Below are positions 6,458-51,801 of a stretch of 64,000 bases of DNA, piece after piece. Source of the DNA: Candidatus Omnitrophota bacterium (GTDB taxonomy: Bacteria > Omnitrophota > Gorgyraeia > B26-G9); contig JBDRPX010000004.1 of assembly GCA_043826565.1 (NCBI GenBank), positions 10,232-74,231 on the forward strand, written 5' to 3'. The notes beneath the pieces were generated by a model, which was not told the DNA's origin, made no database searches, and was given only the letters and a program-made list of their open reading frames with translations. Made by a program: the position numbers and the translations under genes. Numbering within the stretch: the stretch's first letter is position 1; the number at the start of each line of letters is the position of its first letter.

Positions 6458-7405
6458 ATGAATATAGATAATAGAACTGAAGACGATAAGCGATATATCA
6501 GTGATTTAAAGAAGAAGATTTCTGAACTTAAGAAAAAAAGAAAAGCTGTAATCATTGCGCACAATTATCAGCGTCCGGAAGTACAGCAGGTGGCTGATAT
6601 TACCGGAGATTCTTTGGAATTAAGCCGTGGGGTTACTCAAGTAGACGCGAAAACTGTAATTTTTTGCGGGGTGCATTTTATGGCTGAAACAGCATCTATA
6701 CTTAATCCGAAAAAAAAGATACTTCTCCCGGTAAAGGAATCAGGTTGTCCGATGGCCGATATGATTAATCTCAAAGAGCTGCGAAAGCTGAAAAAAGCGC
6801 ATCCCGGAGTGCCGGTTGTTTGTTATGTGAATTCCTCCGCGGAAGTCAAAGCGGAAAGTGATATTGCCTGTACTTCCAGTAACGCCGTGCAAATAGTCGA
6901 TTCCCTCCCGGAGAAGCAGGTTATTTTTGTTCCGGATAGGAATCTGGGTTCTTATATACAGTCTCAATTACCGCATAAAAAAATTATTCTTTGGGAAGGA
7001 TTTTGCCCGACGCATATGCGTGTTTCTGAGGAAGAAATAATTGAAGCAAAGCGGAAACATAAAAAAGCGAAATTTATTGCTCATCCGGAATGTCCCGGGA
7101 GGCTTTTGAAACACGCGGATTTTATCGGTTCGACAAGCCAGATGCTGCAATATGTAAAAAAGACACCCAGCCAGGAAATTATTGTCGGTACAGAGCTGGG
7201 GATGATCTATCGTTTTAAACAAGAAGCTCCGCATAAGAAATTCTATTGTCCCAGTGAGCATTTTATCTGCGCGGATATGAAATTAACAACTTTGGGATGG
7301 ATCGCGCATAGTTTGGAAAACATGGTTTATGAAGTCAGAGTTAGTGAGAATGTGAGAAAAGGCGCGAAAAAATCTTTGCAGAGAATGCTTTCCGCGCTTA
7401 AGTAA
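6458..7405 (+). CDS. nadA: quinolinate synthase
   Basis: AHNYQRPEVQ...DSL and VHFMAET motifs, plus Cys residues spaced as in NadA. Confidence 0.85.
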   Translation: MNIDNRTEDDKRYISDLKKKISELKKKRKAVIIAHNYQRPEVQQVADITGDSLELSRGVTQVDAKTVIFCGVHFMAETASILNPKKKILLPVKESGCPMADMINLKELRKLKKAHPGVPVVCYVNSSAEVKAESDIACTSSNAVQIVDSLPEKQVIFVPDRNLGSYIQSQLPHKKIILWEGFCPTHMRVSEEEIIEAKRKHKKAKFIAHPECPGRLLKHADFIGSTSQMLQYVKKTPSQEIIVGTELGMIYRFKQEAPHKKFYCPSEHFICADMKLTTLGWIAHSLENMVYEVRVSENVRKGAKKSLQRMLSALK

Positions 7406-7420
7406 AAGAAAGAATAGATA

Positions 7421-8227
7421 ATGATTAAAGTTGGTATTGTCGGATGTGGAACGATTGGTTCATATCTTGCTAAAGAAATTTTAAAACGATATAAAGACAG
7501 TGTCCGTTTAATGGGATTTTGTGAGGTCGATGGAAATAAAGTTGCCAAGCTAAACCGTCTGCTCAGAATAAAACTTAATGTATATTCGCTCGAGGATTTA
7601 ACTGAAAAGTGCGATCTGATTATTGAAGCAGCAGTTGGAGAAATTGCTGTGCAGGTTGTCGAAAGCGCGCTTAAGTTTAATAAAGATGTTATGATCATGA
7701 GTGTCGGAGGGTTGCTTAAAGAACCGCAATTATTTAAAAAAGTTAAAAAAAGTAAAATAAAGCTATATATCCCCAGTGGTGCTATTGCGGGACTAGATGC
7801 GCTAAAAGCCGCAGGGATGAGCAAAATAAAAAGTGTTTCGCTGACAACAAAGAAACCGCTGGCAGGTTTGGCTGGCGCGGATTATATCAAAAAGAATAAA
7901 ATTGATTTAAATAAAATCAAAACAGAGAAAGTAATCTTTGAAGGAACTGCGTTTGATGCGGTAGCTGGTTTTCCCAAAAATATAAATGTTGCCGCAGTTT
8001 TAAGCTTAGCCGGGATTGGCGCGAAGAAGACAAGGATTTGTATCATTGCCTCCCGCCAAATAAAAAGAAATACACATACTATTGCAATTGAGGGAGATTT
8101 TGGTAAAATAATATGTTGCACGGAGAACGTGCCGTCAAAGGTAAATCCAAAGACAAGTCAGCTGGCAGTATTGTCTGCGTTGGCAGCATTAGACGGGATC
8201 ATTGATAATATACGAATAGGCAACTAA
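7421..8227 (+). CDS. nadX: L-aspartate dehydrogenase-like NAD(P)-binding protein
   Basis: N-terminal GIVGCGTIGS Rossmann motif and ~268 aa length. Sitting directly downstream of nadA fits a NadX-type substitute for NadB. Confidence 0.65.
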   Translation: MIKVGIVGCGTIGSYLAKEILKRYKDSVRLMGFCEVDGNKVAKLNRLLRIKLNVYSLEDLTEKCDLIIEAAVGEIAVQVVESALKFNKDVMIMSVGGLLKEPQLFKKVKKSKIKLYIPSGAIAGLDALKAAGMSKIKSVSLTTKKPLAGLAGADYIKKNKIDLNKIKTEKVIFEGTAFDAVAGFPKNINVAAVLSLAGIGAKKTRICIIASRQIKRNTHTIAIEGDFGKIICCTENVPSKVNPKTSQLAVLSALAALDGIIDNIRIGN

Positions 8228-8239
8228 AGCTTAAGGAGT

Positions 8240-8443
8240 TTGGTTATGGGTTGTCCGAATATCGAAACAAATATACAAATGTGTAATTGCAGTTATGTTC
8301 CTTGTTCACGCAAAGGAAGATGCTGTGAATGTTTGCATTATCACCGGATGAGAAAAGAGCTTCCCGCGTGTTATTTTAGTAGTAAAACTGAGAGTACATA
8401 CGACCGTTCGATTGAAAACCTCATAAAAGATACGCAGCAGTAA
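8240..8443 (+). CDS. small cysteine-rich protein (9 Cys in 67 aa), function unknown
   Basis: CPN...[20 protein letters not shown]...PACYF. It resembles a conserved small uncharacterised bacterial Cys-rich family, but the family name is recalled rather than verified. Confidence 0.45.
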
Positions 8444-9365: not shown

Positions 9366-10466
9366 ATGGATATAAGCCTGATATTGGGAATTTCTATAGT
9401 TGTCGGTTGTGTGATAGTTGTAATATTTTGGATGTTTAAAAATCAAAAACCGGCGAAGTCAGATAATGTCATGAGTTTATTGCAGCAGCAGGTTGATAAT
9501 TTGCGTCAGCAGGTTAGTGAATCACTTAATGCTAATGCGCAGTTAGTTAATCAGCGGTTGAGTGAGCTTAATAACAGTGTTAATCAAAATCTGCAGGCGG
9601 TAACAGAGCAAATGATTGCTTCACAAAAAACTGTGGGCGACCGGCTTGAGGGAGCTACCCATATGGTGGGGCAAGTGCAAAAAGGGTTAGGTTCTTTGAC
9701 TGAGGCGACACAGCGGATATTTGAAGTCGGCAAGGATATTGCCAGTTTGCAGGAAATTCTCCAGGCTCCCAAGATAAGGGGAGGATTAGGAGAGTTGTTT
9801 TTAGAAGATCTTTTAAAGCAAATGCTGCCTTTTGCTAATTTTCAGATGCAATATAAATTTAAGAGCGGTGTGATCGTCGATTCCGTGGTCCGCTTGGGAG
9901 AGCACCTGATTAGTGTTGATTCGAAGTTTCCTTTAGAAAATTTTCGTCGAATCATCAGCTCAGAGAATGAAGATGGAAAAAAACAAGCGCGCCGAATTTT
10001 TAAAAGTGATGTAAAAAAGCACATTGACAGTATTGCTTCTAAATATATTGTTCCTGATGAAGGAACATTTGATTTTGCGCTTATGTATATTCCCGCGGAA
10101 AATGTTTACTATGAAATGATTATTAAAGATGATGGAGACGGGGAAAACAGCTTAAGCGTCTATGCGTTGAAGAAAAAAGTTATTCCCGTAAGCCCCAATT
10201 CCTTTTACGCGTATTTGAACGCGATTGTTTTAGGGTTGAAGGGATTAAAAATAGAAAAAAATGTACAGAATATTATTCAGCACCTTGATCATTTAAATAA
10301 GGATATGGAGCGTTTCAAGAATGATTTTGAGGTATTAGGAACACATATAAGGAATTTGAGCGGTAAATACGATGAAGCTGATAAAAGGCTTAGCAAATTT
10401 GAAGGCAAACTGGTAAGTATTTGCCAGGTCGAAAACGATAACAAACTTTTAGGTGATCATGAATAG
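9366..10466 (+). CDS. rmuC: DNA recombination protein RmuC
   Basis: N-terminal TM, a coiled-coil region, then the RmuC-type motifs VDSKFPLE and MYIPAENVYYE. Confidence 0.75.
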   Translation: MDISLILGISIVVGCVIVVIFWMFKNQKPAKSDNVMSLLQQQVDNLRQQVSESLNANAQLVNQRLSELNNSVNQNLQAVTEQMIASQKTVGDRLEGATHMVGQVQKGLGSLTEATQRIFEVGKDIASLQEILQAPKIRGGLGELFLEDLLKQMLPFANFQMQYKFKSGVIVDSVVRLGEHLISVDSKFPLENFRRIISSENEDGKKQARRIFKSDVKKHIDSIASKYIVPDEGTFDFALMYIPAENVYYEMIIKDDGDGENSLSVYALKKKVIPVSPNSFYAYLNAIVLGLKGLKIEKNVQNIIQHLDHLNKDMERFKNDFEVLGTHIRNLSGKYDEADKRLSKFEGKLVSICQVENDNKLLGDHE

Positions 10467-11007
10467 TAATGGTTTTGATAGAAGGTCTTATCCTCGTTTT
10501 GTCTCAACATTACCGCTGGAAATTAGTACCCCTGATTTCCAGTTGGAGACAATAACTAAAAATTTAAGCTGCTCCGGAGTCCTTTGCCAAGTACGTCGTT
10601 TTATACCGCTCAAGACGAAATTGAAGGTTACGATGAAACTTCCGCTTGTTATCGATGAGAAAAAAGTTAAAAAGTCGGTGAGTTGCCCGGCGGTAGTTGC
10701 CAGGATTGAGCCTTCCGAAGAAATGGGAGGAGCTGCCTATAAAATCGGTATTGTGTTTTTGAGTATCGAAGGGCAAGATAGAGAATTTATTTTGCAGTTC
10801 ATCCGCCAGAAAAACCTAAAAGAGGCAAAAGAGTTAAAGCGTTTATATTTGCAGTTAAAAGAGATGGCTGCCCGGCTTACCGAATTGGAAGAATGTCATC
10901 CCACGGCGGAACATTTTAGGAAGGTTATAAGCGGTGCTATTGAGGAACTTGATGCCGCCGCGCATATCCTTGATTTTGAAATAAATGAACTCAGACATAT
11001 GGAGTAA
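10453..11007 (+). CDS. PilZ-domain protein (c-di-GMP binding)
   Basis: The RRxxxR-like DRRSYPRF motif and the N.SxxG motif (NLSCSGVL). Confidence 0.65.
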   Translation: MIMNSNGFDRRSYPRFVSTLPLEISTPDFQLETITKNLSCSGVLCQVRRFIPLKTKLKVTMKLPLVIDEKKVKKSVSCPAVVARIEPSEEMGGAAYKIGIVFLSIEGQDREFILQFIRQKNLKEAKELKRLYLQLKEMAARLTELEECHPTAEHFRKVISGAIEELDAAAHILDFEINELRHME

Positions 11008-12096: not shown

Positions 12097-12169
12097 GCGC
12101 CTGTAGCTCAATGGATAGAGCACTAGTCTTCGGAACTAGGAGTTGTCCGTTCGAGTCGGACCAGGCGCG
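12097..12169 (+). tRNA. tRNA-Arg (anticodon TCG)
   Basis: Hand-folded cloverleaf: acceptor GCGCCTG/CAGGCGC, D-arm GCTC..GAGC, anticodon loop CTTCGGA, T-arm GTCCG TTCGAGT CGGAC. Confidence 0.8.
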
Positions 12170-12227
12170 CTTATTCTTGACCTTAAGTTTATTTTTTGTT
12201 ATAATTTAAACTTCCGAAAGAATCGGA

Positions 12228-12303
12228 GGGCCGTTAGCTCAATCGGTAGAGCATCTGACTCTTAATCAGGGGGTTGAAGGTTCGAGTCCTTCACGGCCCA
12301 CCA
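12228..12303 (+). tRNA. tRNA-Lys (anticodon CTT), CCA encoded
   Basis: Acceptor GGGCCGT/ACGGCCC, anticodon loop CTCTTAA, T-loop TTCGAGT, 3' ACCA. Confidence 0.85.
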
Positions 12304-12339
12304 ATTGTATCCTATAGTAAAGGTGGTGAAGCTTCTGTG

Positions 12340-13020
12340 ATGAAAGATATACAGGAACAGTTTGAACTGTTTGAAAAGGTAAATAATAAATACCGCAGCA
12401 TAGGAGATGTATTTGTTTTACTATTAATCGTTGTTTTGTTTGTGCAGATCGGTGTTATGGGGTATTTTATTACTAATATTGATACTGCCGAAATACAAGA
12501 AAAACTGGTAAAAAGAAGTATTGAGGTTGTCCCGGTTCTGCGGGATGAGATTAGTGATACTTTAAGAGAAGTTATTCCGGTATATGCCGAGGAGTTTAAA
12601 CAAAAAGTAGAAAAGCGTATGCCGGAATTTGAGGCGAAGCTTGAAAAAGAAAGCGGAGAATTTGTTGCCGGTTTTGAAAAAAAGATTTTGCCGAAAGCAG
12701 AAGCAAAAATTGATATATTAAGTGAGCGTACATTAGCCGTAATCCTAGAGGAATTTCCGGAATTGCAGGATTCGGAAAACACAGAAAATGTTGTAAAGAA
12801 TTTAAAAGAAGCTTTAGTCATTGCTTTTGCGGATATCTTTACGGATAAGCTCTCAAAAGCGGATAAGATCTTTAGGGGAATTAAAGAAAAACTTGATAAG
12901 ATGCATAAAGGTAACTTACAAATTGAAGATAATGTTGAAATAAAACTTCTTGCAGTTACTTTTCAATTAGCCGGTAAACGAATCGCGGAAGAAATTAGCC
13001 AGATGGAAAGCGGAAACTAA
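12340..13020 (+). CDS. single-TM membrane-anchored protein, function unknown
   Basis: The start is moved to the ATG at 12340 because the longer ORF overlaps tRNA-Lys. RBS AAGGTGGTGA. One TM (VFVLLLIVVLFVQIGVMGYFI), then a charged helical region. Confidence 0.5.
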   Translation: MKDIQEQFELFEKVNNKYRSIGDVFVLLLIVVLFVQIGVMGYFITNIDTAEIQEKLVKRSIEVVPVLRDEISDTLREVIPVYAEEFKQKVEKRMPEFEAKLEKESGEFVAGFEKKILPKAEAKIDILSERTLAVILEEFPELQDSENTENVVKNLKEALVIAFADIFTDKLSKADKIFRGIKEKLDKMHKGNLQIEDNVEIKLLAVTFQLAGKRIAEEISQMESGN

Positions 13021-13035
13021 TTGGATCGGATAAAA

Positions 13036-13090
13036 AAGACCTCTCACTCTAAAAGAGTTCGAGGTTAATTTGTTAATGCAAATTAAGGAG
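13036..13090 (+). promoter_or_regulatory. conserved leader element, copy A (AAGACCTCTCAC...GTTCGAGGTTAATTTG-loop-CAAATTAAGGAG)
   Basis: One of three ~85% identical copies (also 27200-27253 and 60506-60558). Each ends in the RBS of the downstream gene. It contains a perfect 7-bp inverted repeat TAATTTG/CAAATTA. Confidence 0.55.
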
Positions 13091-13096
13091 TTTGTG

Positions 13097-13777
13097 ATGG
13101 GGCAGGAAAATAGCACGGTTTTGCTAATAGAGCAGAAGATTGAAAAACTGCAGAAAAAGATAAAAAGAAACACTATCGTTTTCTTGGTATTGCTTATTGC
13201 GGTGATCATTCACTCTGCGTATACTTGTGTCTGGACTCACGAAATGACAAAGCCGGAGATGATTGTCGATGCTTTGTACGGAAAAGTTCTCTTGTCTACT
13301 CCGGAAATTGGAAAGAACACAAGGAAATATTTAATAGAAAATGCAGCGGTTATTACCGATAATGTGCTTGATCAAAGTCTTGGGGTTTTACCGCAGATGC
13401 GTTTGCTTGCTTTAAGGCAAGCTGATATTTTGACGACAAAATTATTCAATGAGGCAATTCGTGATGTAGAGCAGGTAACCCGGGATATGCTCACAGAAAA
13501 TAAAGATAAGCTTAGGGAAGGTATTGAAAGCGGGCTAAAAGAAGAAAATGTCAGTGCTCTTTCTCTGAAGATCGTCTCTGAAGTTGAAGGGTCATTAGAT
13601 CCCTGGGTTGATGAAATGATCAACTCTTTAGAAGTTAACTTGGAAAGTATAAATAATCAGCTGGATCAGATGGATAATAAACGCCGTTTAACAAAAGAAG
13701 AACAGTTGGAGCAGCGGTTTATTGAGTTATGGTTTCAATTGATGGCGAAATATTTTCCGGAAAAGAAACAATTATAA
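13097..13777 (+). CDS. single-TM membrane-anchored protein, paralog of 12340-13020
   Basis: Same architecture (short N-terminus, one TM, long helical charged domain). Start set at the ATG 6 nt after the AAGGAG of the leader element. Confidence 0.5.
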   Translation: MGQENSTVLLIEQKIEKLQKKIKRNTIVFLVLLIAVIIHSAYTCVWTHEMTKPEMIVDALYGKVLLSTPEIGKNTRKYLIENAAVITDNVLDQSLGVLPQMRLLALRQADILTTKLFNEAIRDVEQVTRDMLTENKDKLREGIESGLKEENVSALSLKIVSEVEGSLDPWVDEMINSLEVNLESINNQLDQMDNKRRLTKEEQLEQRFIELWFQLMAKYFPEKKQL

Positions 13778-13781
13778 TCAG

Positions 13782-13866
13782 GCGGACGTGGCGGAATTGG
13801 CATACGCGTACGGCTTAGGACCGTATCCCTTCGGGGATGAGAGTTCAACTCTCTCCGTCCGCACCA
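13782..13866 (+). tRNA. tRNA-Leu (anticodon TAG), CCA encoded
   Basis: Acceptor GCGGACG/CGTCCGC, anticodon stem-loop TACGG CTTAGGA CCGTA, long variable arm, T-loop TTCAACT. Confidence 0.85.
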
Positions 13867-14024
13867 AGTAGTTTGTAGCTCATAGCTGATGGTTCATAGT
13901 CAAAAGAAAAATGCTAAATAAAAAATTATTATTTATCATTATTTTGAAAATCCTATCAGTTAATTTTATACAGTTGTATTTTTTACTATGAGCAATAAAC
14001 TATGAGCCATAAGCTAATAAATAC
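13867..14024. repeat. intergenic quasi-palindrome of CATAG-containing units between tRNA-Leu and tRNA-Gly
   Basis: tagctcatagctgatggttcatagtc ... ctatgagcaataaactatgagccataagcta. Confidence 0.55.
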
Positions 14025-14099
14025 GCGGCGGTAATTCAGTGGTAGAATGTCTGCTTGCCAAGCAGAATGTCGAGGGTTCGACCCCCTTCCGCCGCTCCA
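14025..14099 (+). tRNA. tRNA-Gly (anticodon GCC), CCA encoded
   Basis: Acceptor GCGGCGG/CCGCCGC, anticodon loop TTGCCAA, T-loop TTCGACC. Confidence 0.85.
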
Positions 14100-15726: not shown

Positions 15727-16341
15727 ATGAAGGAACAGAATCAAATGTTAGTGCCGATGGTTGTAGAGCAGACCAGTCGTGGAGAACGAGCATATGATAT
15801 TTACTCACGATTATTAAAAGATAGGATTATTTTTATCGGAACCGCGATTGATGATATGGTCGCTAACCTGGTTATTGCGCAAATGCTATTTTTACAGATG
15901 GAAGATCCGGATAAAGATATTAATATCTACATTAATTCCCCGGGAGGTGTTGTTACTGCGGGCTTGGCTATTTATGATACGATGCAGTTTGTCAAATGTG
16001 ATGTTAACACTTATTGCGTCGGGCAAGCCGCGAGCATGGGGGCGGTTCTTTTAGCTGCCGGGGAAAAAGGTAAGCGGTTTATCCTGCCTAATGCGCGGGT
16101 TATGATTCATCAGCCCTGGGGTGGAACGCAGGGAGCAGCTTCGGATATAAGTATTCAGGCCCAGGAAATTTTAAAATTGCGGGATAATCTGAATGGAATT
16201 TTAAGCCGTCATACCGGTCAGCCGATTGACAAAATTGCCAAGGATACCGACAGGGATTATTTCATGTCTGCGGAAGAGTCAGTAGCCTATGGAATTATTG
16301 ATAGTGTAATCTCAAGTGAGCTGGATCAAAAGAAGAAATAG
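15727..16341 (+). CDS. clpP: ATP-dependent Clp protease proteolytic subunit
   Basis: SPGGVVTAG...GQAASMGA...MIHQP gives the catalytic Ser/His context. RBS AAGGAGG. Confidence 0.9.
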
Positions 16342-16363
16342 AACTTTACCGGAGGTAAGATCT

Positions 16364-17941
16364 GTGAAGATACTAATAAGTGATCCTTTATCGGAAGAAG
16401 GAATAAAGATTTTAAGAGATAGAGGTCTTGCTTTTGATTTGAAACCAAAATTATCTCCGGAAGAATTAAAAAGTATTATCAGTGAGTATGATGCTTTGAT
16501 TATCAGAAGCGGAACAAAAGTAACTGCTGAGATTATCAAGGCTACTAAGAATCTTAAAGTTATCGGCCGGGCCGGAGTCGGTGTCGATAATGTGGATGTT
16601 GATGCGGCTACTCAAAAAGGGATCGTGGTAATGAATACTCCCGGCGGCAATACGATATCTACCGCAGAACATACCGTCAGTATGCTGCTTGCTTTAAATC
16701 GTAATATCCCTCAGGCAAATATTTCTTTAAAACAAGGACAATGGGAACGTAAAAAATTCCAAGGCAAGGAACTTTCTAAAAAGACATTAGGCATTATCGG
16801 CTTAGGCAGAATTGGTTTTGAAGTTGCTAAACGTGTGCAGTCCTTTGGGATGAAGGTTATCGCATATGATCCTTTCTTGTCCACAAAAAAAGCTCAACAG
16901 GTAGATATTGAGCTGGTTGAGCTTGATGAATTATTTAAACGTTCCGACTACTTGACTGTACATACACCTTTAAGTGATGAAACACGTCATATGATCGGAA
17001 AAAGTCAGTTTGATCAGATGAAAAAGGGAGTGAAGATCCTTAATTGCGCGCGCGGCGGTATCGTTGATGAAAAAGCACTTTATGAGGCGATAAAAAATGG
17101 AGTTGTTTCCGGAGCTGCTTTAGATGTTTTTGAGCAGGAACCGCCGGTAGATAATCCGCTGATAGGTTTAGATAGTGTTATTGCCACGCCTCATTTAGGC
17201 GCTTCGACCGATGAAGCCCAGGTGAATGTTGCGGTTGAGATTGCTCAGCAGGTCGCGGATATCTTAGAAGGTAAAGGAATTCGAAATGCCGTGAATTATC
17301 CCTGTATTGAAGGCGAAACATGTACTATTTTGGAACCTTATATGCGGCTGGCGGAAAAGCTGGGTTCTTTGCAAGCGCAGATTATTACTGGACATATCAA
17401 CAAAGTGAGTATAAAATATGGGGGAGAGATTGTAGGTCAGGAAGTCGCTCCTATAACAGTGGCGCTTATAAAAGGGTTACTGACCCCCATATTGCAGGAA
17501 TCAATAAATTTTGTTAATGCTCCATTTATTGCTAAAGAGCGGGGCATAGCGGTTAGTGAGACCAAAATTCTTGAAACAGAAGAATTTGCTAACCTGATCG
17601 GGGTTGAAGTTGAAACCGATCAGGGGAAGACATTTGTTGCCGGAACTTTGTTTTCTAAAAATAATCCGCGAATTGTCAGGATTAACGAGTTTTATATTGA
17701 TTCAATCCCGGAAGGTTACATGATCATAACTCATAATCACGACAAGCCGGGAATTGTGGGAGAAATCGGGACAATTCTTGGTGAGAATAACATCAATATC
17801 GGAGCCATGAATTTCGGCAGAACAGCTCCCGGAGGAGAATCCTTGGTGGTTTTGAATGTTGATGGAAATGTTTCCCGTGAAATTTTAGAAAAAATTAAAA
17901 ATAGTGAAAATGTACTTGATATTAAACTCATCAAGCTTTGA
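16364..17941 (+). CDS. serA: D-3-phosphoglycerate dehydrogenase (long form with C-terminal ACT domain)
   Basis: 2-hydroxyacid dehydrogenase NAD-binding motif GIIGLGRIG, a catalytic His region, and a C-terminal ACT-like segment. GTG start after GGAGG. Confidence 0.8.
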   Translation: MKILISDPLSEEGIKILRDRGLAFDLKPKLSPEELKSIISEYDALIIRSGTKVTAEIIKATKNLKVIGRAGVGVDNVDVDAATQKGIVVMNTPGGNTISTAEHTVSMLLALNRNIPQANISLKQGQWERKKFQGKELSKKTLGIIGLGRIGFEVAKRVQSFGMKVIAYDPFLSTKKAQQVDIELVELDELFKRSDYLTVHTPLSDETRHMIGKSQFDQMKKGVKILNCARGGIVDEKALYEAIKNGVVSGAALDVFEQEPPVDNPLIGLDSVIATPHLGASTDEAQVNVAVEIAQQVADILEGKGIRNAVNYPCIEGETCTILEPYMRLAEKLGSLQAQIITGHINKVSIKYGGEIVGQEVAPITVALIKGLLTPILQESINFVNAPFIAKERGIAVSETKILETEEFANLIGVEVETDQGKTFVAGTLFSKNNPRIVRINEFYIDSIPEGYMIITHNHDKPGIVGEIGTILGENNINIGAMNFGRTAPGGESLVVLNVDGNVSREILEKIKNSENVLDIKLIKL

Positions 17942-17976: not shown

Positions 17977-19608
17977 ATGAAAGGTAAACTGTTGAATAAA
18001 TTATTTATCATGATGGTGAGTATTTTGATTCTTCCTGTAGCTGCCAGAGCAGAGCTTGTGCTGGTAGCGGATATCGGGATTGAAGCATTTGGCCCGGAAG
18101 TGAAGATTTCCGTCACTTCTAATCTGCCTTTGCAGATTGAAACATTTAAGAGTGAAGAAGGTTCATCAAACTATATAGTTGTCGATTTTTTAGGAGCAGT
18201 ATATTCAGATCTTCCGCCGGTTGTGGATATAAGCAGCGGTGCGGTAGAAAAAGTAAGTCTTGTGCGGGGAGAGGAACAGCCGGTATCAGTAGACGGAAAA
18301 GAATATTACACTCTCGATTTTTTAGCAATTAACTTAAATGCCGATGCTGATTACAAAGTTGATCAGGATATGAATGTTATTGATTTGAAAATTACTGCTG
18401 TTGCAAAATCAGATAAGCTGTCTAAAGAAAGTGAGGCGGTTGTTTTAGAACCGCCGGTAGTTGTTACCCCGAGGAAAGTGGAAGTACCCAAGATTGAAAA
18501 AAAAGAAGATGTTGAAAAAGCGGAAAAAGAAAATAAGAAAGAAGAAGCGAGATTAGCTAAAGAAGCAAAGAAGGCGGAAAGAGCAAAGAAAAAAGAAGAA
18601 GTGAGATTAGCTAAAGAAGCAAAGAAGGCGGAAAGAGCAAAGAAAAAAGAAGAAGCGGGATTGGCTAAAGAAAAGCTGGAGAAAAAAATAGAATCAAAAA
18701 ATCCTGAAAAGAAGAAAAATGTATTAATCGTAAAAGCAGAACCGGAGCAAAACCCGGAGGTTAAAAAGACGGTAAGCCGTGCTGTTGATCCGGCTAATAA
18801 ATATATAATTGATAAGGTTGTCCAAGATACTATGCGTGAAAAAGAGCAGGTTAATTCCCGCATTGAAGAATTGACCGCTCAGCTGCAGCGCATGCAGAAA
18901 GATCTTGACTCCACAAAAGGTGAAAAATCTAAGATAGAAAGTAAAATAAGCGAAATTCTGTCAAGACTTGATGATGTTAATGACGCTTTAGGACTGGAAA
19001 TTAAACGTCGTCGTGAGTTAGGTGAACAGGTTGAGGATTTGGTTGAAAAAAGAAAGGCCTATACGCAGGCAAAGAGAACATTTGAAACTGTTGCCGCACA
19101 GCTTGCCGATACAAATGACAAAGTTGATACTTTGACCGCGGAAGCAGCCGCGGTCAAAGGTAATATTAGTGAGCTGGAAAAAGAAAAGAGTCAGCTAGAG
19201 TCAAAATTTGGCGCGCTTAGTACGGAAAGCGGCCGCTTTGAGGCTGATTATGAAGAGGCTTTGGATTTAAGTAACCGGAGTTCTGCGAAAGTAGATGAAT
19301 TAAGAAGAAAGCTTGAGCAAATGGAGATGACTCTCGCCAAGACCCTAAAAGATGAAGAAGCGCTTAAAGCTAAAGTTAAGGATTTAGAAAGTAAAAGAAA
19401 ATTCAGCAGTATAGAAGCGTCAAATTTTAAACAAAAATTAATGGATAAAGAAATATTATTAGATAATCTCTCCAGAAAATATGAACAGCTGAATAACGAA
19501 TTGGAGCTATCTTTGATGCAAAAGGATAAGCTTGATGAAGAATATAAAGATGCCAAGAATAAATATGAACAAATTAAACGCGAAGTTAAAGAGTCTATTA
19601 AAAATTAA
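17977..19608 (+). CDS. secreted AMIN-domain protein with Lys/Glu/Ala tandem repeats and a long coiled coil
   Basis: Signal peptide, then an AMIN-like beta domain (LVLVADIGIEAFGPEVKISV...YIVVDFLGAVY), then repeated KEEARLAKEAKKAERAKKKEE units, then heptad-rich sequence. Confidence 0.55.
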   Translation: MKGKLLNKLFIMMVSILILPVAARAELVLVADIGIEAFGPEVKISVTSNLPLQIETFKSEEGSSNYIVVDFLGAVYSDLPPVVDISSGAVEKVSLVRGEEQPVSVDGKEYYTLDFLAINLNADADYKVDQDMNVIDLKITAVAKSDKLSKESEAVVLEPPVVVTPRKVEVPKIEKKEDVEKAEKENKKEEARLAKEAKKAERAKKKEEVRLAKEAKKAERAKKKEEAGLAKEKLEKKIESKNPEKKKNVLIVKAEPEQNPEVKKTVSRAVDPANKYIIDKVVQDTMREKEQVNSRIEELTAQLQRMQKDLDSTKGEKSKIESKISEILSRLDDVNDALGLEIKRRRELGEQVEDLVEKRKAYTQAKRTFETVAAQLADTNDKVDTLTAEAAAVKGNISELEKEKSQLESKFGALSTESGRFEADYEEALDLSNRSSAKVDELRRKLEQMEMTLAKTLKDEEALKAKVKDLESKRKFSSIEASNFKQKLMDKEILLDNLSRKYEQLNNELELSLMQKDKLDEEYKDAKNKYEQIKREVKESIKN

Positions 19609-19654
19609 TTTTGATTATTCGATAATTATTGGGAACAGAAAGGTAGGTGGATCC

Positions 19655-22222
19655 ATGAGGAAACGTTTTTTTCTGTTGTTAGTTACAACGGCCTTGATAA
19701 TTTTTACTGGTGGCGCGCAGCTTTTTGCTCAGTCGGTTGTCTTAACTGATACAGAAATTAAAGAGGATTCTGACGCCGTACAATTGTTGTTTTCAACTAA
19801 TCGGTCTATTCCCATTGAATGTTATGACCTAAGTACTCCCCCGCAAATCGTGATTGATTTTATGGGTGAAATATATAGTAATAAACCTGAGATCATGATG
19901 GTAAACAAAGGTGCTGTAAAACAGATACGTGTAATAAAGGGGACAAGACAAGCAGCAGACTTAGATGATGCGTATTATTCTGTTGATTTTATTATTGTGG
20001 ATTTAAAAGAAGCCTTGCGATATGACTTTAACCAAGGATTAACTACCGCGGTTTTAGTTATTTCAAAACCGGGAAAAATCGTTACGGCAAAAATTCCCCT
20101 GAAGGAAGTCCCGGAAGTAGAACCTAGGACGGTAAGTCCGGAACCGGTTGAAAAGAAAGTTGTGGAAAAAGAAGTTGTTAAGAAAGAAGCTGTTAAACCG
20201 GTAGTTACTGAGAAACCTTTGCCGGTCGTGAAAAAGGAAAAGCCGTTTTTACTTGAGGAAAAAGAGCGTGATGCTGAGCAGGTGGTAATGCCTGCGAAAA
20301 AAGCGGATAAGGTTGTGGAGGCTTCTGATGAAGGTACTGTCGCGAAAAGTTCCAAAGCGGTTGGTAAAGGAATAGCTAAAGGCGTAGGAAGTTTTGGCAA
20401 AGGAATAAAAAACTTCTTTGGAGGGAAAGATAAAGATTCCAAAGAAGAACCTAAGGAAAATAGAAAAAGCAGAAGATCCAGACAAAATAAGGTAGCCCAA
20501 AAGAAGGAAAAAGAAGAAAAGAAAGCTGCTGCGAAACCGCAAAAGAAACTTTCTGCAAAACCAAAGAAAACAAAGGAGTTCTCCATAGAATCGATCTCCT
20601 TAGAAGAAGCGACAAAAAACTTGGCGGGTGCTAAAAGGGAATGTGGAAAAGCAGAGGAAGAAGTAGATGCCTTAAAGAAAGAAGTTGCTGATATAAATGC
20701 CGGCTTGGAGCAGGAGAAGGAAAAATTCGAAAAGAAAAAATCCGAAATCTCCGCTACTGAGGAAAAGAAAGACAGTGCTGAGAAAGATTTTAAGGCTGCT
20801 TTAAAGAAAACAGATATTGCGAAGAACAAAGCGAACGCTGTCTGGGTCGAATATGCCGAGGTTAAAGATCAGTTAAGCAGTCTTTTAGAAGGGAATGAAA
20901 AAGAAAGTATTATTGAAGATAGACAAAAGAAATATGAGAAAAAGAAAGAAATACTGGAGTCTTCGATCCGAGAAGCAGAAGAAGCTAAAGCGGGAAGCGA
21001 CAAAAAACTAAAAGAATACAATTTCTTAAAAGAAGAAGTGGGTAAATTATCACAGGAAGCAAAAGATCCGGAAAAGAAGATTGAAGTATTACAAAACAAG
21101 CAGCGTGAAACAGAAAAAAAACTTAATCTGGCAATGAATGATTTGAATGCGGCAAATAAGAAATTATCAAAAGCCGGGAGAGATTATAAGAAATATGAAT
21201 TAGAGAAAGCTGATGAGGAATATCGAAAATCCTTATTGGAGATAGATGAAGAAATAATTGTTCAAATGGAAGATCGCAGCAGTAAGCACGTAGAGAAACA
21301 GAAAAATGAAGAAGAAAAACGTAAAAAAATAGTTGAGAAAACCGCGGAAAAAGAAGCCCAGATTGAAGAGGAAAAATTAGAGAAAGAAACGATCAGAGAG
21401 GAACGCGCTCGTAAACGAGAGGAAGCTTTAGCCGCGAGAAAAGCGGAAAGAGAACAGAAAAAGGAAGAGGCTCGATTAGCTAAAGAAGCGAAAATGGCTG
21501 AAAAGGAAAAGAAAAGAGAAGAGGCTAGGCTGGCTAAAGAAGAACGCAAGGCCCAAAGAGAAGAGAAAAGAGAAGAAGCTAGGTTAGCCAAAGAAGCGCA
21601 AGAAGAGCTTAATAGAGAAGAAGAGATAGCTGAGATTGCTAAACAAGATGCTCAGGAAGCAGCTTTATTGCTTGTGCAGGAAAAAAGGCTGAAAGAAGAA
21701 GTTGTTGAGGAATATGCTGAGGAAGAAGTTGCGGAAGAAGAGGTATTGGTTGTTCCTGAAGAAGATAAAGAAATTCGGCCAAAAAGAAGAAAGACAAGTC
21801 TTGCCGCTAAGAAAAAAGCAGTTGAACAAAAATCACCGCGGGAAGAGATCTTGAAATCAGCAGTTGAGTTGCGCAATGCCGGTCTGGAAATGCAGCGTAC
21901 CGGGGATTTGGACCGCGCACTTAGATATTACCAGAAAGCGTTGATGAGTGATCCGGAATATGCGGCGGTGCATAATGACTTAGGTATTCTTTATGAACAA
22001 AAAGGCTTGGATGAGAAAGCAAAAATGGAATATCTTAAAGCTTTAAAAATAAATCCTTATTATATAAAGTCTCACAGTAATTTAGCTCTTTTATATGAGA
22101 AGTTTGGAGATAATAATAAGGCGTATTATCATTGGAAGCAAAGGGCTGAGTTAGGAGATCCTAATGATCCATGGACTGGAAAAGCAAAAGAAAAAATGGA
22201 AGAATTTAAGCAGAGAAAGTAG
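19655..22222 (+). CDS. secreted AMIN-domain protein with Lys/Glu repeats, coiled coil and C-terminal TPR repeats (paralog of previous)
   Basis: Signal peptide, an AMIN-like domain (VVLTDTEIKEDSDAVQLLFS...IVIDFMGEIY), EEARLAKEAK repeat units shared with the upstream gene, and C-terminal TPR-like helices (ALRYYQKAL...YLKALKINPYY). Confidence 0.55.
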   Translation: MRKRFFLLLVTTALIIFTGGAQLFAQSVVLTDTEIKEDSDAVQLLFSTNRSIPIECYDLSTPPQIVIDFMGEIYSNKPEIMMVNKGAVKQIRVIKGTRQAADLDDAYYSVDFIIVDLKEALRYDFNQGLTTAVLVISKPGKIVTAKIPLKEVPEVEPRTVSPEPVEKKVVEKEVVKKEAVKPVVTEKPLPVVKKEKPFLLEEKERDAEQVVMPAKKADKVVEASDEGTVAKSSKAVGKGIAKGVGSFGKGIKNFFGGKDKDSKEEPKENRKSRRSRQNKVAQKKEKEEKKAAAKPQKKLSAKPKKTKEFSIESISLEEATKNLAGAKRECGKAEEEVDALKKEVADINAGLEQEKEKFEKKKSEISATEEKKDSAEKDFKAALKKTDIAKNKANAVWVEYAEVKDQLSSLLEGNEKESIIEDRQKKYEKKKEILESSIREAEEAKAGSDKKLKEYNFLKEEVGKLSQEAKDPEKKIEVLQNKQRETEKKLNLAMNDLNAANKKLSKAGRDYKKYELEKADEEYRKSLLEIDEEIIVQMEDRSSKHVEKQKNEEEKRKKIVEKTAEKEAQIEEEKLEKETIREERARKREEALAARKAEREQKKEEARLAKEAKMAEKEKKREEARLAKEERKAQREEKREEARLAKEAQEELNREEEIAEIAKQDAQEAALLLVQEKRLKEEVVEEYAEEEVAEEEVLVVPEEDKEIRPKRRKTSLAAKKKAVEQKSPREEILKSAVELRNAGLEMQRTGDLDRALRYYQKALMSDPEYAAVHNDLGILYEQKGLDEKAKMEYLKALKINPYYIKSHSNLALLYEKFGDNNKAYYHWKQRAELGDPNDPWTGKAKEKMEEFKQRK

Positions 22223-31199: not shown

Positions 31200-33128
31200 A
31201 TGGGACAATATGAACTAAATCTAAGAGATTATATTCGGATATTTCGTAAACGCCGGCCAATCATTTTTCTTACCTTTATCATTATTACTCTTATCAGTGC
31301 TTTGTTTTCGGTAAAACAGGTCTCTACATATGTAGCTGTTACCACAGTTAAAATAGAAGAGCATAAAACTGTTGCCGGATTGCTTACCGAATGGATAGTA
31401 TATCAGCCGGGAGATATTATGGAATCGGAAACCAAGATTGTCAAAGGCTATCCGGTGATGAAAAAAGCAGCGATGCATCTGGGGCTGATTGACCAGGAGT
31501 CAACTGAAGATCAAACGAATCTTGTGGTCAGCACTTTACAGGACAAAATAGAGGCGGAACGCATCGCGAACACAAATATAATCCGGATTGTTGCGACTGC
31601 TGAGAATAGCCAGGAAGCTATAGAAATTGCGACGGCGGTAGCTCAGGAATATAAAGCTTATAATCTGGAGGAAAGACGCAGCCAGGCCAGCAGTGCCCGT
31701 AAATTTATTGAGGAGCAATTGCTTTCTCTGGAGAAGCGTTTAAGAGAAAAAGAGGAAGTGCTTAAAAAATTTGCCGAACAGTATGGAGGAGCAGCGCTTA
31801 ATGAGCCTTTCCAGAAAAAACTGGCAGAGTTGGAATTTGAACTTAATAAGTTAAAGCAAAAATATACGGAAAAACATCCAAATGTTATTCAGGTACAGGA
31901 ACAGATCGCCGCGCTTAAAGAGAATAGTAAGCAATTTGCCGGAGAGGATTTGAAAATTGCGCGGATTGCCCGGGATGTAGAATCGGATAAAAAGCTTTTT
32001 TCTATGCTTAAAGAAAAGTTGGAAGAAGCCCGGATAAATGAATCGCAAAAAGTCAGCGCGGTTTCCATTGTTGACCCCGCGGTAACCGCGGAAAAGAAAA
32101 TAATCGGACCGAATAAAATCGTCGGATTATTAGTCGGTGGATTTCTCGGGCTTATTTTAGGGTTTGCCTTGGCTTTAGTGCTGGAAAATCTGGATACTTC
32201 TATCGGGACAATTGAAGATGTCGAGCGCATAGCTGACGTACCGGTATTAGGAGTTATTCCGTCGGTATTACTGGAAGGCTCGGAACGAAAAAAAAGAGGT
32301 GTTTTTAGGAATTTTAAAAATAAATTAATGAACCGGGAGACGGAAGAGGTTGACGAAAAATCTATTCGCATGATTCTTCACTATAACCCGACTTCTCCGA
32401 TAGCGGAAGCTTTTCGTAATGTGCATACAAACCTTAAACTTACCCGGGAAAAGAAAACAATTCTCGTTACCAGTGCCGGCCCGCGGGAAGGCAAAAGCAC
32501 CACTGTGACGAATTTGGCGCTTGCCGTAGCTCAGGCGGGGATGAAGGTGCTTATTGTTTCCACAGATATCCGCCGGCCGGTAATCGGCAAGACATTTGGT
32601 ATAGATAAAGAACCGGGATTAACCGATGTTCTGCTGGGGATGATTTCCTTAGATGATGCCGTAAAAAATGTTACGGATTTTATGCTCGGAGATATGAGCT
32701 TTGAAGATATTCAGCAAACTCCGGGGTTGGATAATCTTTGGGTCCTTACCAGCGGCAAATTGCAGTTTAACCCGGCGAAATTATTGGAATCAAAAGAGTT
32801 TACCGACAGTGTTGAGGCAATGAAAGAAAGATTTGATGTTATCTTCTTCGATTCTCCTCCGGTATTACCGGTTACCGATTCCAGCCTTATTGCTAAAAAG
32901 ATGGATTGTGTGATTATGGTCTATGAAATCGGCAGGACCAGCCGGGAAGCTTTACTGCGCGCGAAAAATCAGCTTGATTCTGTCGGAGCCAATATCGCCG
33001 GTATTGTGCTTAATCAGACCAGACAGGAAATCGAAGCGGATGTTATTCAGCCCTACTATTATAAATATAAATATTACAAGTCTACTGAGGAAGAGGCAGC
33101 TGAAAAAAAAGGGGTCATTCTTAATTAA
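31200..33128 (+). CDS. polysaccharide co-polymerase/BY-kinase fusion (Wzc-like tyrosine autokinase)
   Basis: N-terminal Wzz-like domain with two TMs and a coiled coil. C-terminal Walker A (SAGPREGKST) and a terminal Tyr cluster (YYYKYKYYK). Confidence 0.8.
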   Translation: MGQYELNLRDYIRIFRKRRPIIFLTFIIITLISALFSVKQVSTYVAVTTVKIEEHKTVAGLLTEWIVYQPGDIMESETKIVKGYPVMKKAAMHLGLIDQESTEDQTNLVVSTLQDKIEAERIANTNIIRIVATAENSQEAIEIATAVAQEYKAYNLEERRSQASSARKFIEEQLLSLEKRLREKEEVLKKFAEQYGGAALNEPFQKKLAELEFELNKLKQKYTEKHPNVIQVQEQIAALKENSKQFAGEDLKIARIARDVESDKKLFSMLKEKLEEARINESQKVSAVSIVDPAVTAEKKIIGPNKIVGLLVGGFLGLILGFALALVLENLDTSIGTIEDVERIADVPVLGVIPSVLLEGSERKKRGVFRNFKNKLMNRETEEVDEKSIRMILHYNPTSPIAEAFRNVHTNLKLTREKKTILVTSAGPREGKSTTVTNLALAVAQAGMKVLIVSTDIRRPVIGKTFGIDKEPGLTDVLLGMISLDDAVKNVTDFMLGDMSFEDIQQTPGLDNLWVLTSGKLQFNPAKLLESKEFTDSVEAMKERFDVIFFDSPPVLPVTDSSLIAKKMDCVIMVYEIGRTSREALLRAKNQLDSVGANIAGIVLNQTRQEIEADVIQPYYYKYKYYKSTEEEAAEKKGVILN

Positions 33129-33395
33129 TGTGAACGATTTTCTATAACTTAATGATTACTAAATTGTTAGGCTAAATTTAAGAATGTCCCTGATTACAAT
33201 GATTAAAAAATTGATTACACCGATTGGACAAGTTGTCTTAAAAACCAGTTTTTCTTCTCGAGAGTTAAATATATTAATATCTGTGTAATCTTTTGAAAAT
33301 CTGTGAAATCAGGTTCTTTCAAGTTCACAAAAAATAAGAAAGAACCAAAAAAAGAATCATTGGCGCGTCGTTAGTTCTCTATAAATTTTCGAAGA

Positions 33396-34778: not shown

Positions 34779-34812
34779 GCAGGATATCATAGATAAACAA
34801 AAAGGTGGCGTT

Positions 34813-36693: not shown

Positions 36694-36697
36694 TTAC

Positions 36698-38808: not shown

Positions 38809-38834
38809 TATAGGTTTAATAATTAGGGGGAAGT

Positions 38835-43201: not shown

Positions 43202-43212
43202 AAGGACGAAAA

Positions 43213-45376: not shown

Positions 45377-45377
45377 A

Positions 45378-51462: not shown

Positions 51463-51801
51463 GTAGATAAGGTTAACAGATAAGCCTGTTTTCGTCAAGG
51501 TACAAGACAGTCGCTAAGCGCTCAGCTACTGCGTTATTTTTTCGCTTACTTGTGCGACGTGCATTTTGCACGCCTCCGCGTTCGCTCAAAAAAGCCTTGT
51601 ATCTGAGCACTTTTCGACAGCTTGTATGATTCTTTATGGTTTTTGTTTAAGTTATCTGTGTCTTGGGTCTTGCGTCTTGAGTCTATTAATTTTTTCCCTT
51701 GTAAGTGTTTTTATGACTGTGATACAATTAAATAAATAGGGGCGGGGCAAAAATACCGCAGATATTTCATGGAATGGATTATTAAAGACAAGGAGTGGGG
51801 T

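Follow-up and report, generated by a model that had tools for sequence, protein, structure and literature searches.

A tandem gene pair for candidate envelope proteins with a divergent AMIN-type domain in Candidatus Omnitrophota

Known systems and the gene pair

The AMIN domain (PF11741) is the septal-targeting domain of AmiC, and it was proposed to dock envelope machines on peptidoglycan (PMC2572700). In the catalogue of de Souza et al. 2008, AMIN is found combined with TPRs, with OEP channels and with a charged helical region similar to that of TolA, so that the AMIN plus TPR and the AMIN plus charged-helix architectures are already known (PMC2572700).

A long antiparallel coiled-coil rod in a secreted protein is found in EnvC and also in PcsB, RipC and RipA. 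CpoB (YbgF), encoded in the tol-pal operon, is a periplasmic envelope scaffold with a coiled coil and, behind it, a TPR domain at the C-terminus, and it has no AMIN domain. The Omnitrophota are uncultured, very small and possibly host-dependent bacteria, and we know of no experimental work on the biology of their envelope.

The window, i.e., the complete 64-kb stretch of DNA that was analysed, comes from a Candidatus Omnitrophota MAG and contains two tightly packed genes on the same strand, P1 and P2 (Table 1). Both start with ATG (17977 and 19655), preceded by GGGGTGGAGG in P1 and by AGGTAGGTGGA in P2 as ribosome-binding sites, and they end at stop codons at 19608 and 22222. P1 is identical to MFH2137077.1 of NCBI (an exact match in the protein collection), a Candidatus Omnitrophota MAG protein annotated as hypothetical. 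The packing is operon-like, with gaps of 35, 46 and 5 nt and no terminator-like site in the intergenic gaps of the serA/P1/P2/purA locus; P1 and P2 probably share a transcript with serA and purA. The tandem occurs between these two genes, with its order preserved, in at least 13 MAGs of the phylum (13 complete loci and further incomplete ones). The preliminary description had presented a tandem pair of giant proteins, to be doubted if they were absent or fragmentary in close relatives; the pair is real, intact and conserved, but with 543 and 855 residues the term giant was overstated.

The genes around the pair, in the window and in the syntenic loci, serve housekeeping metabolism and are uninformative about function; FtsEX, amidase, Tol-Pal and pilus genes are all missing from the 64 kb. 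A polysaccharide export and biosynthesis cluster is located approx. 9 kb downstream of the pair.

Read by eye, the N-terminus of P1 (MKGK to AARA, followed by EL) and that of P2 (MRKR to LFA, followed by QS) resemble signal peptides of signal peptidase I, and neither of them has a lipobox cysteine. The pattern is kept in the orthologs of both proteins, with LFAQS conserved in those of P2, which suggests that P1 and P2 are exported.

Table 1. Location of the genes and of the regions distinguished in P1 and P2
Feature	Positions	Strand	Basis
P1 gene, 543 aa + stop	17977..19608	+	ORF, RBS, exact protein match, orthologs in at least 13 MAGs
P1 putative signal peptide, aa 1-24, cleavage after ARA, no Cys	17977..18048	+	Sequence read; AF2 helix aa 2-22; ortholog pattern
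P1 divergent AMIN-type beta-sandwich, aa 25-145	18049..18411	+	
P1 disordered linker, aa 146-178, with family-conserved AV(E)LxPP(I/V)VV motif	18412..18510	+	pLDDT <50 at aa 145-181; motif in ortholog alignment
P1 predicted Lys/Glu repeat helix, aa 179-227, single-alpha-helix or TolA-domain-II-like	18511..18657	+	TRF; AF2; composition
P1 second disordered basic linker, aa 228-271, hypervariable in orthologs	18658..18789	+	pLDDT <50; alignments
P1 conserved coiled-coil domain, aa 272-543, helices 272-312, 317-445, 452-542	18790..19605	+	
P2 gene, 855 aa + stop	19655..22222	+	ORF, RBS, orthologs
P2 putative signal peptide, aa 1-26, cleavage after LFA	19655..19732	+	Sequence read; LFAQS in orthologs
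P2 divergent AMIN-type domain, aa 27-144; 60-75% identity to orthologs	19733..20086	+	
P2 low-complexity linker, aa 145-314: Pro/Val/Lys-rich, then Gly/Lys-rich with conserved GKGIKxFF, then strongly basic	20087..20596	+	Composition scan; conservation profile
P2 helical or coiled-coil-like region, aa 315-540; conserved islands including AKxAANxxWxEY and YxLEK...EYKKSL	20597..21274	+	
P2 Glu/Lys/Arg single-helix-like region, aa 541-650, hypervariable among orthologs	21275..21604	+	Repeat scan, composition, conservation
P2 acidic segment, aa 651-705 (net charge -15), then basic PKRRK linker, aa 706-729	21605..21841	+	
P2 C-terminal module: three canonical TPRs and conserved tail AYYHWKQRxxLGxxxDPWTxKAKE	21842..22219	+	Pfam TPR above cut-off

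The divergent AMIN-type domain

The signal-peptide-like N-terminus is directly followed by an AMIN-type domain in P1, P2 and all their orthologs, and the domains of P1 and P2 are homologous to each other (25% identity over 141 residues, E = 1e-16, BLASTP). The AF2 model of this domain (pLDDT 81) is a beta-sandwich whose fold is closest to the AMIN domains of AmiC and PilQ, and its best structural match in Foldseek was the B2 domain of PilQ, with a TM score of 0.51. A profile built from the two domains of the window matched the secretins P0077 (E = 1e-18) and P0080 (E = 3e-12) exactly over their Pfam AMIN regions; likewise, hhalign aligned the window domains with validated AMIN domains over 106 columns (98.3%, E = 2.1e-14), a comparison that is only partly independent because the validated set was itself retrieved with the window profile. 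As in AmiC and PilQ, then, the beta-sandwich follows the signal peptide and the homology is visible at the profile level; P1 and P2 differ in that their domains are below the Pfam threshold, with no match to PF11741 at E<=1 (the gathering score is 20.5 bits). Weak matches to this model were obtained for 16 of 29 N-terminal domains of the family (best E = 4.3e-4), and the short ortholog P0045 reached 18.3 bits. No solved AMIN structure was retrieved by sequence with the family profile. The signal peptide and AMIN-like domain attributed to both proteins in the preliminary description are therefore upheld, the latter as a divergent variant.

The hhalign alignment shows that neither P1 nor P2 has the R-x-x-x-acidic signature boxes of AMIN (de Souza 2008). 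The arginine of the canonical PPRIIVDF is replaced by tyrosine in P1 (NYIVVDF) and by glutamine in P2 (PPQIVIDF), with the aspartate retained; the second box reads YYxLDF, and approx. 8 residues are inserted before the second DF motif. Given the loss of the signature arginine, the peptidoglycan-binding properties of these domains may differ. TolC-like OEP proteins, Wza-like exporters and secretins also begin with this variant; its presence at the front of several envelope machines fits the role of a peptidoglycan-docking module, as proposed for AMIN (PMC2572700), and the domains of P1 and P2 may bind peptidoglycan. PflA, from the flagellar scaffold of Campylobacter, was matched with a score below that of the AMIN domains and with no detectable sequence relation; unlike P2, its TPRs form a long superhelix and its gene lies in a flagellar context.

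Charged helices, the P1 rod and the P2 spacer

An 18-residue repeat of the KKEEARLAKEAK type is present in three copies in each protein, as part of 54-nt tandem arrays detected with TRF at 18520-18672 in P1 (2.8 copies, 91% matches, score 257) and at 21447-21602 in P2 (2.9 copies, 77% matches, score 155). The sharing of the repeats, noticed earlier, is evident in the proteins, with 38 of 52 residues identical (E = 2e-14, BLASTP). In the charged segments (residues 176-231 of P1 and 540-650 of P2) the fraction of E/K/R is 0.6-0.75 and that of hydrophobic residues 0.07-0.11, and opposite-charge i/i+4 pairs amount to 0.43-0.46 per residue versus 0.22-0.27 in the coiled coils. The P1 helix (residues 179-227) is isolated in the AF2 model, with a pLDDT of 75-79 and disorder on both flanks; its E/K/R fraction is 0.64-0.71. 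With over 60% E/K/R, few hydrophobic residues and dense opposite charges, these segments have the properties of an ER/K single alpha-helix or of TolA domain II, and the charged repeats are predicted to form single helices of approx. 7 nm in P1 and 17 nm in P2. The resemblance lies in a K/E/A/R-rich, highly charged, hydrophobic-poor sequence predicted as an isolated helix; however, P1 and P2 have neither the membrane anchor nor the C-terminal domain of TolA, and their segments, of approx. 50 and 110 residues, are hypervariable and lineage-specific. A heptad coiled coil was rejected for the Lys/Glu repeats, in which 9-10% of the residues are hydrophobic and over 60% are E, K or R.

The charged helices sit in hypervariable linkers and are absent from most orthologs, and the Lys/Glu repeat of P1 is absent from all P1 orthologs. 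The ARLAKE repeat is confined to the two proteins of the window, except that the closest relative (L011) has a weaker version of it in the corresponding place of P2 and none in P1. This distribution is consistent with one past transfer from P2 to P1 or with parallel expansion. The preliminary description had suggested ongoing recombination between the paralogs, for which support is weak: the repeat is lineage-specific, but identical codons at identical repeat residues (23 of 38, versus 17.7 expected) give no sign of recent or continuing gene conversion.

The AF2 model of P1, with 16 orthologs as input, shows in order the AMIN-type domain, disorder, the isolated charged helix, disorder, and three helices of 41, 129 and 91 residues (pLDDT 80-93), modelled as an antiparallel rod of approx. 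19 nm. Residues 272-543 have the pattern of a coiled coil, with an occupancy of 0.62-0.88 at the heptad core versus 0-0.15 at non-core positions, and isoleucines and leucines spaced by seven are invariant across the 16 orthologs (I296, L303, L310, I324, L331, L348 and L355). The hundreds of residues of heptad-like sequence once ascribed to both proteins are thus a strong feature of this region of P1 and a weaker, patchy one of P2 (residues 315-540), and they do not include the charged repeats; homology of the P2 region to the P1 coiled coil was not demonstrable (hhalign, 56%). P1, in which Pfam detected no TPR, is a clade-restricted paralog that keeps the AMIN-type domain and has the conserved antiparallel rod of approx. 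270 residues.

The best structural match of the rod was the coiled-coil domain of EnvC. P1 could be imagined as a coupler of the EnvC/PcsB/RipC type: an FtsEX-like (type VII ABC) transporter would clasp the rod with its periplasmic domains, the AMIN domain would sit on septal peptidoglycan, and P1 would regulate or position wall hydrolases in division, with P2 adding a partner through its TPRs. The septal targeting of AmiC by AMIN (PMC2572700) and the conserved, non-generic residues along the rod agree with this proposal, which we nevertheless regard as unlikely: Pfam and NCBIfam revealed no LytM, peptidase_M23, CHAP, NlpC/P60 or other effector domain in P1, no EnvC-type NCBIfam model matched at E<=1, sequence similarity to EnvC is lacking, and ftsEX is absent from the window and from the conserved neighbourhood. 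P1, with an AMIN domain at its N-terminus instead, was for these reasons rejected as an EnvC-type murein hydrolase activator.

As had been described, TPRs are present only at the end of P2, where three of them (residues 735-825) score above the Pfam cut-offs (TPR_11, 37.3 bits versus 26.8; TPR_17, 31.9 versus 24.4; TPR_1, 28.9 versus 27.8). They align with CTPR3 designs over three repeats and the capping helix, and the TPRs of OGT also match. PilW (E = 2e-10) and Tgl (E = 3.7e-10) were the best TPR matches in NCBIfam; together with the occurrence of the same AMIN variant on secretins, OEP channels and Wza-like proteins, and with the export cluster downstream, they evoke a TPR assembly factor in the style of PilW/PilF/Tgl or PflA, serving an outer-membrane machine (a secretin, TolC-like or Wza-like) whose insertion site through the peptidoglycan would be marked by AMIN. 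Such a role for P2 is very improbable, since the scores are far below the cut-offs (40.7 versus 154 bits for PilW and 39.6 versus 225 for Tgl), the TPRs are generic and consensus-like, the signal peptide lacks the lipoprotein cysteine, and pilus, secretion or export genes adjoin P2 in none of the examined loci; P2 was accordingly not classed with the pilotin-type TPR lipoproteins. CpoB/YbgF was also discarded: it shares with P2 a coiled coil and C-terminal TPRs, but P2 has an AMIN domain and a far longer, mostly low-complexity spacer, no CpoB model of NCBIfam matched at E<=1, and the neighbours are serA and purA instead of tol-pal.

In other lineages the slot between serA and purA is occupied by a single AMIN plus TPR protein of 288-430 residues; two short forms, P0073 (311 residues) and P0067 (315 residues), are found in the arrangement serA-HMGL-X-purA, and an intermediate form of 614 residues also occupies the slot. 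The 31 family representatives (288-915 residues) share both end modules and finish in the same TPR and tail module, whereas the spacer between AMIN and TPR ranges 35-fold, from 18 to 633 residues, with 580 in P2. From this comparison, P2 appears to be the local, greatly stretched ortholog of a phylum-wide two-module protein formed by AMIN and three TPRs with a Trp-rich tail.

It had been suggested that P1 and P2 are periplasm-spanning tethers; as such, or as rulers, they would connect peptidoglycan with the outer or inner membrane and define the envelope spacing, with the charged single helices and the coiled coils as rigid spacers. The rod and the charged helices have suitable lengths, the latter recall TolA domain II in an architecture noted for AMIN proteins (PMC2572700), and spacer length varies systematically among lineages. 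However, only one anchor (AMIN) is evident, since a lipobox, a TM helix, a beta-barrel and an OmpA/Pal-type domain are absent from both proteins, and the charged helices belong to hypervariable regions missing from most orthologs. Positional orthologs carry spacers of just 18-47 residues, so spanning the periplasm is not intrinsic to the function of the family, and the tether proposal has little probability.

A possible role in the envelope

On balance, P1 and P2 probably reach the periplasm by Sec export and act there as scaffolds or adaptors docked on peptidoglycan, P2 being the stretched version of the phylum-wide form and P1 the paralog of this clade. The gene models, homology, domain architecture, conservation and spacer elasticity described above are directly supported. 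The AMIN domain would attach the N-terminal end to the sacculus, perhaps to its septal or polar peptidoglycan by analogy with AmiC and PilQ; protein partners would be held by the P2 TPR module and by the P1 rod, and the linkers would determine how far away. The linker of P2 has grown in this clade to approx. 580 residues, with a disordered basic part, a helical or coiled-coil part, a charged helix of approx. 110 residues and an acidic patch. Binding of partners and a part in division or envelope organisation are suggested by this architecture, and a division or envelope scaffold, also named in the preliminary description, seems the most plausible class of function. A bolder proposal, to which we give only a slim chance, is that the AMIN-spacer-TPR family is an envelope organiser throughout the Omnitrophota, its spacer tuned in each lineage as a ruler, and that the duplicated P1, an EnvC-like rod without LytM, couples a motor of the ABC-transporter type to septal peptidoglycan; if true, wall remodelling or division would be wired in a novel manner in these ultra-small bacteria.

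A single chain with AMIN, coiled coil, charged helix and TPRs, such as P2, is not described in PMC2572700, nor are the tandem paralog with AMIN and an EnvC-like rod or the distribution in Omnitrophota. The practical gain is a better annotation and a hypothesis on localisation and partners, not a new principle. Standard domain models miss this variant of AMIN, with which TolC-like, Wza-like and secretin proteins of these organisms also begin. Across the phylum the locus is defined by two conserved modules, a divergent AMIN domain and a three-TPR module with a fixed tail, and the length variation of the link between them offers a natural series for asking what the length of a periplasmic linker does.

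Organization and conservation of the P1-P2 locus

Two tandem + strand genes, P1 and P2, fill the interval that a preliminary description had assigned to a pair of giant proteins (Table); the two-gene architecture stands, but with 543 and 855 residues the products are not giant. P1 is identical to NCBI entry MFH2137077.1, which comes from a Candidatus Omnitrophota MAG and is annotated as hypothetical. Inspected by eye, both N-termini look like signal peptides: the n-region is basic, the core hydrophobic, and the AxA-type site lacks a Cys. The pattern recurs in all orthologs. The gaps between the end of serA and P1 (35 nt), P1 and P2 (46 nt), and P2 and purA (5 nt) are short and contain no terminator-like site, therefore P1 and P2 are likely co-transcribed with serA and purA. 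Possible minus-strand genes at 18363-18863, 19975-20829 and 21262-21591 were rejected, as the reverse complement of purine-rich Lys/Glu codons is here free of stops; the antisense ORFs over P1 and P2 (109-284 aa, rich in Phe, Ser and Leu) are artefacts. At 20001-22000 the AT skew reaches 0.40 and the GC skew 0.33.

Coordinates of P1, P2 and their elements (nucleotide positions in the window; residues as aa)
Feature	Position	Strand	Remarks
P1	17977-19608	+	543 aa; GGGGTGGAGG upstream of start; start chosen by Shine-Dalgarno sequence
P1 AMIN sandwich	aa 28-141		high confidence (AF2)
P1 disorder	aa 145-178		pLDDT <50
P1 motif AV(E)LxPP(I/V)VV	aa 153-161 (18433-18459)		just past the AMIN domain
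P1 isolated helix	aa 179-227		exactly the K/E repeats; pLDDT 75-79
P1 K/E array	18520-18672		54-nt unit, ~3 tandem copies, 91% matches
P1 disorder	aa 228-271		pLDDT <50
P1 three helices	aa 272-312, 317-445, 452-542		pLDDT 80-93
P2	19655-22222	+	855 aa; AGGTAGGTGGA upstream of start; start chosen by Shine-Dalgarno sequence
P2 linker	aa 145-314		Pro/Val/Lys-rich, Gly/Lys-rich, basic; conserved GKGIKxFF
P2 motif GKGIKxFF	aa 246-255 (20390-20419)		Gly/Lys-rich part of P2 orthologs
P2 helical region	aa 315-540		patchy heptads, few conserved islands
P2 E/K/R helix	aa 541-650
P2 K/E array	21447-21602		54-nt unit, ~3 tandem copies, 77% matches
P2 acidic patch	aa 651-705		net charge -15
P2 PKRRK linker	aa 706-729
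P2 TPR module	aa 730-855

A synteny scan with one genome per species yielded 20 loci, nearly all from Omnitrophota MAGs; the other titles are a PVC-group MAG, one Actinomycetota-labelled and one Draconibacterium-labelled. The last two labels (loci L014, CAWDOM010000006.1, and L015, CAYPOW010000414.1) are probably due to mis-binning or mis-assignment; L014 has the typical Omnitrophota synteny, with serA and P1 in pieces. Wherever the contig permits, a P1-type gene of 487-597 aa precedes a same-strand P2-type gene of 668-840 aa, in the order tig-clpP-(serC)-serA-P1-P2-purA-mgtC-like and onward. The flanking enzymes are 70-85% identical to those of the window; within P1 and P2, good alignment is limited to the end modules, with identities of 60-75% for the N-terminal domain of P2 and about 50% for that of P1. 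Absence or fragmentation in close relatives had been named as grounds for refuting the description of this pair; since both genes are conserved and intact there, this objection falls, and the feature is real and conserved.

Further features of the window and its relatives were noted. Several relatives (L003, 7173-8306; L011, the closest one, 7173-8297; L004, L009 and L005) have a serC-like aminotransferase gene of about 380 codons between clpP and serA; in the window clpP and serA abut (16341-16370) with no serC-like gene, and L006 has only fragments. Two adjacent PilZ-domain paralogs occur in L003 (2393-3506), L004, L006, L009 and L010, and one in the window (10453-11007) and in L011. Gene orientation in the window (1-64000) is unusually one-sided: almost all ORFs of at least 150 aa lie on the + strand, with likely exceptions only at 49881-51498, and every 2-kb bin has a positive GC skew. 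A tRNA cluster (Arg-TCG, Lys-CTT, Leu-TAG and Gly-GCC) lies at 12097-14099, with ORFs of about 240 aa between the four genes; a called ORF overlaps tRNA-Lys. A large same-strand polysaccharide biosynthesis and export cluster (31200-48246) includes a GNVR/AAA_31 chain-length regulator-like protein, a Wzy_C ligase/polymerase, an asparagine synthase, a flippase, two methyltransferases, several glycosyltransferases, PGA_cap, a B12-radical SAM enzyme, a heptosyltransferase-family protein and a DegT aminotransferase.

A divergent AMIN-type N-terminal domain

The N-terminal domains of P1 and P2 align with 25% identity over 141 aa (E 1e-16) and are homologous, in line with the earlier proposal that both proteins begin with an AMIN-like one. 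The Pfam AMIN model did not match P1 or P2 even at E<=1, and the family profile found no solved AMIN structure among the PDB chains, where its sole match, a ribosomal one (E 0.18), is due to chance. In Foldseek, the B2 domain of PilQ ranked first, weakly (TM 0.51, E 6e-3). An exhaustive profile search was needed because a word-indexed search with the P1 domain gave no matches; a profile of the two domains run against 1.84 billion representatives recovered 84 proteins. These include secretins in which the matched segment is called AMIN by Pfam (E 1e-18 and 3e-12), and hhalign of the family domain against these Pfam-validated domains gave 98.3% (E 2e-14). Sub-threshold Pfam AMIN matches were present in 16 of the 29 family domains. 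Where the canonical R-x-x-x-acidic box has its Arg, hhalign aligns a Tyr in P1 and a Gln in P2. The term AMIN-like used previously thus agrees with the fold and the profile homology but not with the Pfam threshold or the signature Arg, and for this reason the domain is placed in the AMIN superfamily as a divergent member.

The same divergent domain heads other proteins: TolC-like proteins (P0036, P0038, P0040, P0049, P0051, P0060, P0062 and P0072), Wza-like proteins (P0053 and P0056, the latter annotated as Omnitrophota) and secretins (P0077 and P0080). One to five copies precede the OEP channels, polysaccharide-export proteins and secretins (up to four or five in the TolC-like proteins); Pfam misses it in most OEP fusions.

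Helical regions, charged repeats and TPRs

P1 was modelled with AF2 using 16 orthologs (mean pLDDT 74.7). The coiled coil predicted earlier is well founded in residues 272-543 of P1, where heptad core occupancy is 0.62-0.88 and the invariant Ile/Leu residues keep a 7-residue spacing in 16 orthologs; it is patchy in residues 315-540 of P2 and does not extend to the K/E repeats. These contain 64-71% E/K/R and 7-11% hydrophobic residues, with an i/i+3,4 opposite-charge density twice that of the coiled coils here, and are best described as putative single alpha-helices, highly charged and resembling TolA domain II. Homology between the helical regions of P1 and P2 is not claimed, given that hhalign assigned it a probability of 56%. 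EnvC, RipA, Cg1735, PcsB and RipC are enriched among the best structural matches of the P1 helices, which would suit an EnvC-like coupling of P1 to an FtsEX-type transporter; nevertheless, helical hairpins resemble many things, P1 has no effector domain and the ftsEX context is absent, making this coupling unlikely. A neighbourhood scan of the 64-kb window turned up neither FtsEX nor amidase, Tol-Pal or pilus genes.

The TPRs are confined to the second protein, as had been described: three, near consensus, exceed the Pfam cut-offs in P2 (aa 735-825), and P1 has none. That P2 helps to assemble an outer-membrane machine, as a pilotin or a PflA-like factor, is very improbable, given that the TPR likeness is generic and its scores are far below the cut-offs. 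Two short motifs, AV(E)LxPP(I/V)VV, kept in nearly all P1 orthologs, and GKGIKxFF in P2, are conserved though the surrounding linkers are hypervariable, and represent possible docking sites.

As previously noted, P1 and P2 carry repeats of one kind, an 18-aa unit (ARLAKE-type); 38 of 52 aligned residues are identical between the arrays, and DNA identity is 77%. Among 13 genome pairs this unit was found only in the P1 and P2 of the window; a degenerate version (KKEEKRKAKEAK) is present at the equivalent position of P2 from L011 and not in its P1. The linker that holds the P1 array is hypervariable in every ortholog; copies 2 and 3 of the array are almost identical in DNA, which indicates a recent tandem duplication. 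P1 and P2 use one and the same codon for 23 of 38 identical residues, a small excess over the 17.7 expected from codon usage. Taken together, these observations do not show the ongoing recombination suggested earlier in the form of continuing conversion; the shared repeat would fit one older P2-to-P1 transfer, or parallel expansion of K/E-rich tracts, followed by local duplication. To compare repeat number among strains, metagenomes were scanned with the repeat DNA; the 14 matches are regarded as chance because none was otherwise similar to the locus, and no strain-level relatives came to light. Within- versus between-genome BLAST comparisons of the low-complexity tails were dominated by composition.

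Evolution and proposed role of the family

All 31 family representatives combine the AMIN-type domain with one common C-terminal module, formed by three TPRs and the tail AYYHWKQRxxLGxxxDPWTxKAKE; the modules are 18 to 633 aa apart (580 in the P2 of the window). Two short forms (311 and 315 aa) and a single-copy intermediate form (614 aa) occupy the slot X in serA-HMGL-X-purA. From this, P2 is concluded to be the ortholog of a short AMIN-TPR protein, with a greatly expanded linker, and P1 a paralog restricted to the long-linker clade, standing where the HMGL-like gene sits. The element lengths would be suitable for a true periplasm-spanning tether or ruler; however, a second anchor is absent and the short orthologs are almost devoid of spacer, so that such a function is doubtful.

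Septal targeting of AmiC and peptidoglycan targeting of PilQ are brought about by their AMIN domains. A localisation role for AMIN, as a general module of periplasmic complexes, was predicted by de Souza et al. 2008 (PMC2572700), who also catalogued the combinations AMIN+TPR, AMIN+TolA-like charged helix and AMIN+OEP; this kind of architecture was therefore known. New here are a divergent AMIN variant that Pfam does not see, its AMIN-TPR family across Omnitrophota, whose linker is elastic over a 35-fold range, and a clade-specific tandem paralog (P1) with an EnvC-like rod. A literature search combining Omnitrophota and AMIN returned no paper.

In P2 both end modules are strongly constrained and the linker is free, a pattern characteristic of an adaptor with two conserved binding targets. 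A peptidoglycan-docking role fits, since the same domain variant heads TolC-like channels, Wza-like exporters and secretins. We lean towards the view that P1 and P2 are periplasmic scaffolds docked to peptidoglycan, in which P2 would offer a TPR platform and P1 a coiled-coil rod.
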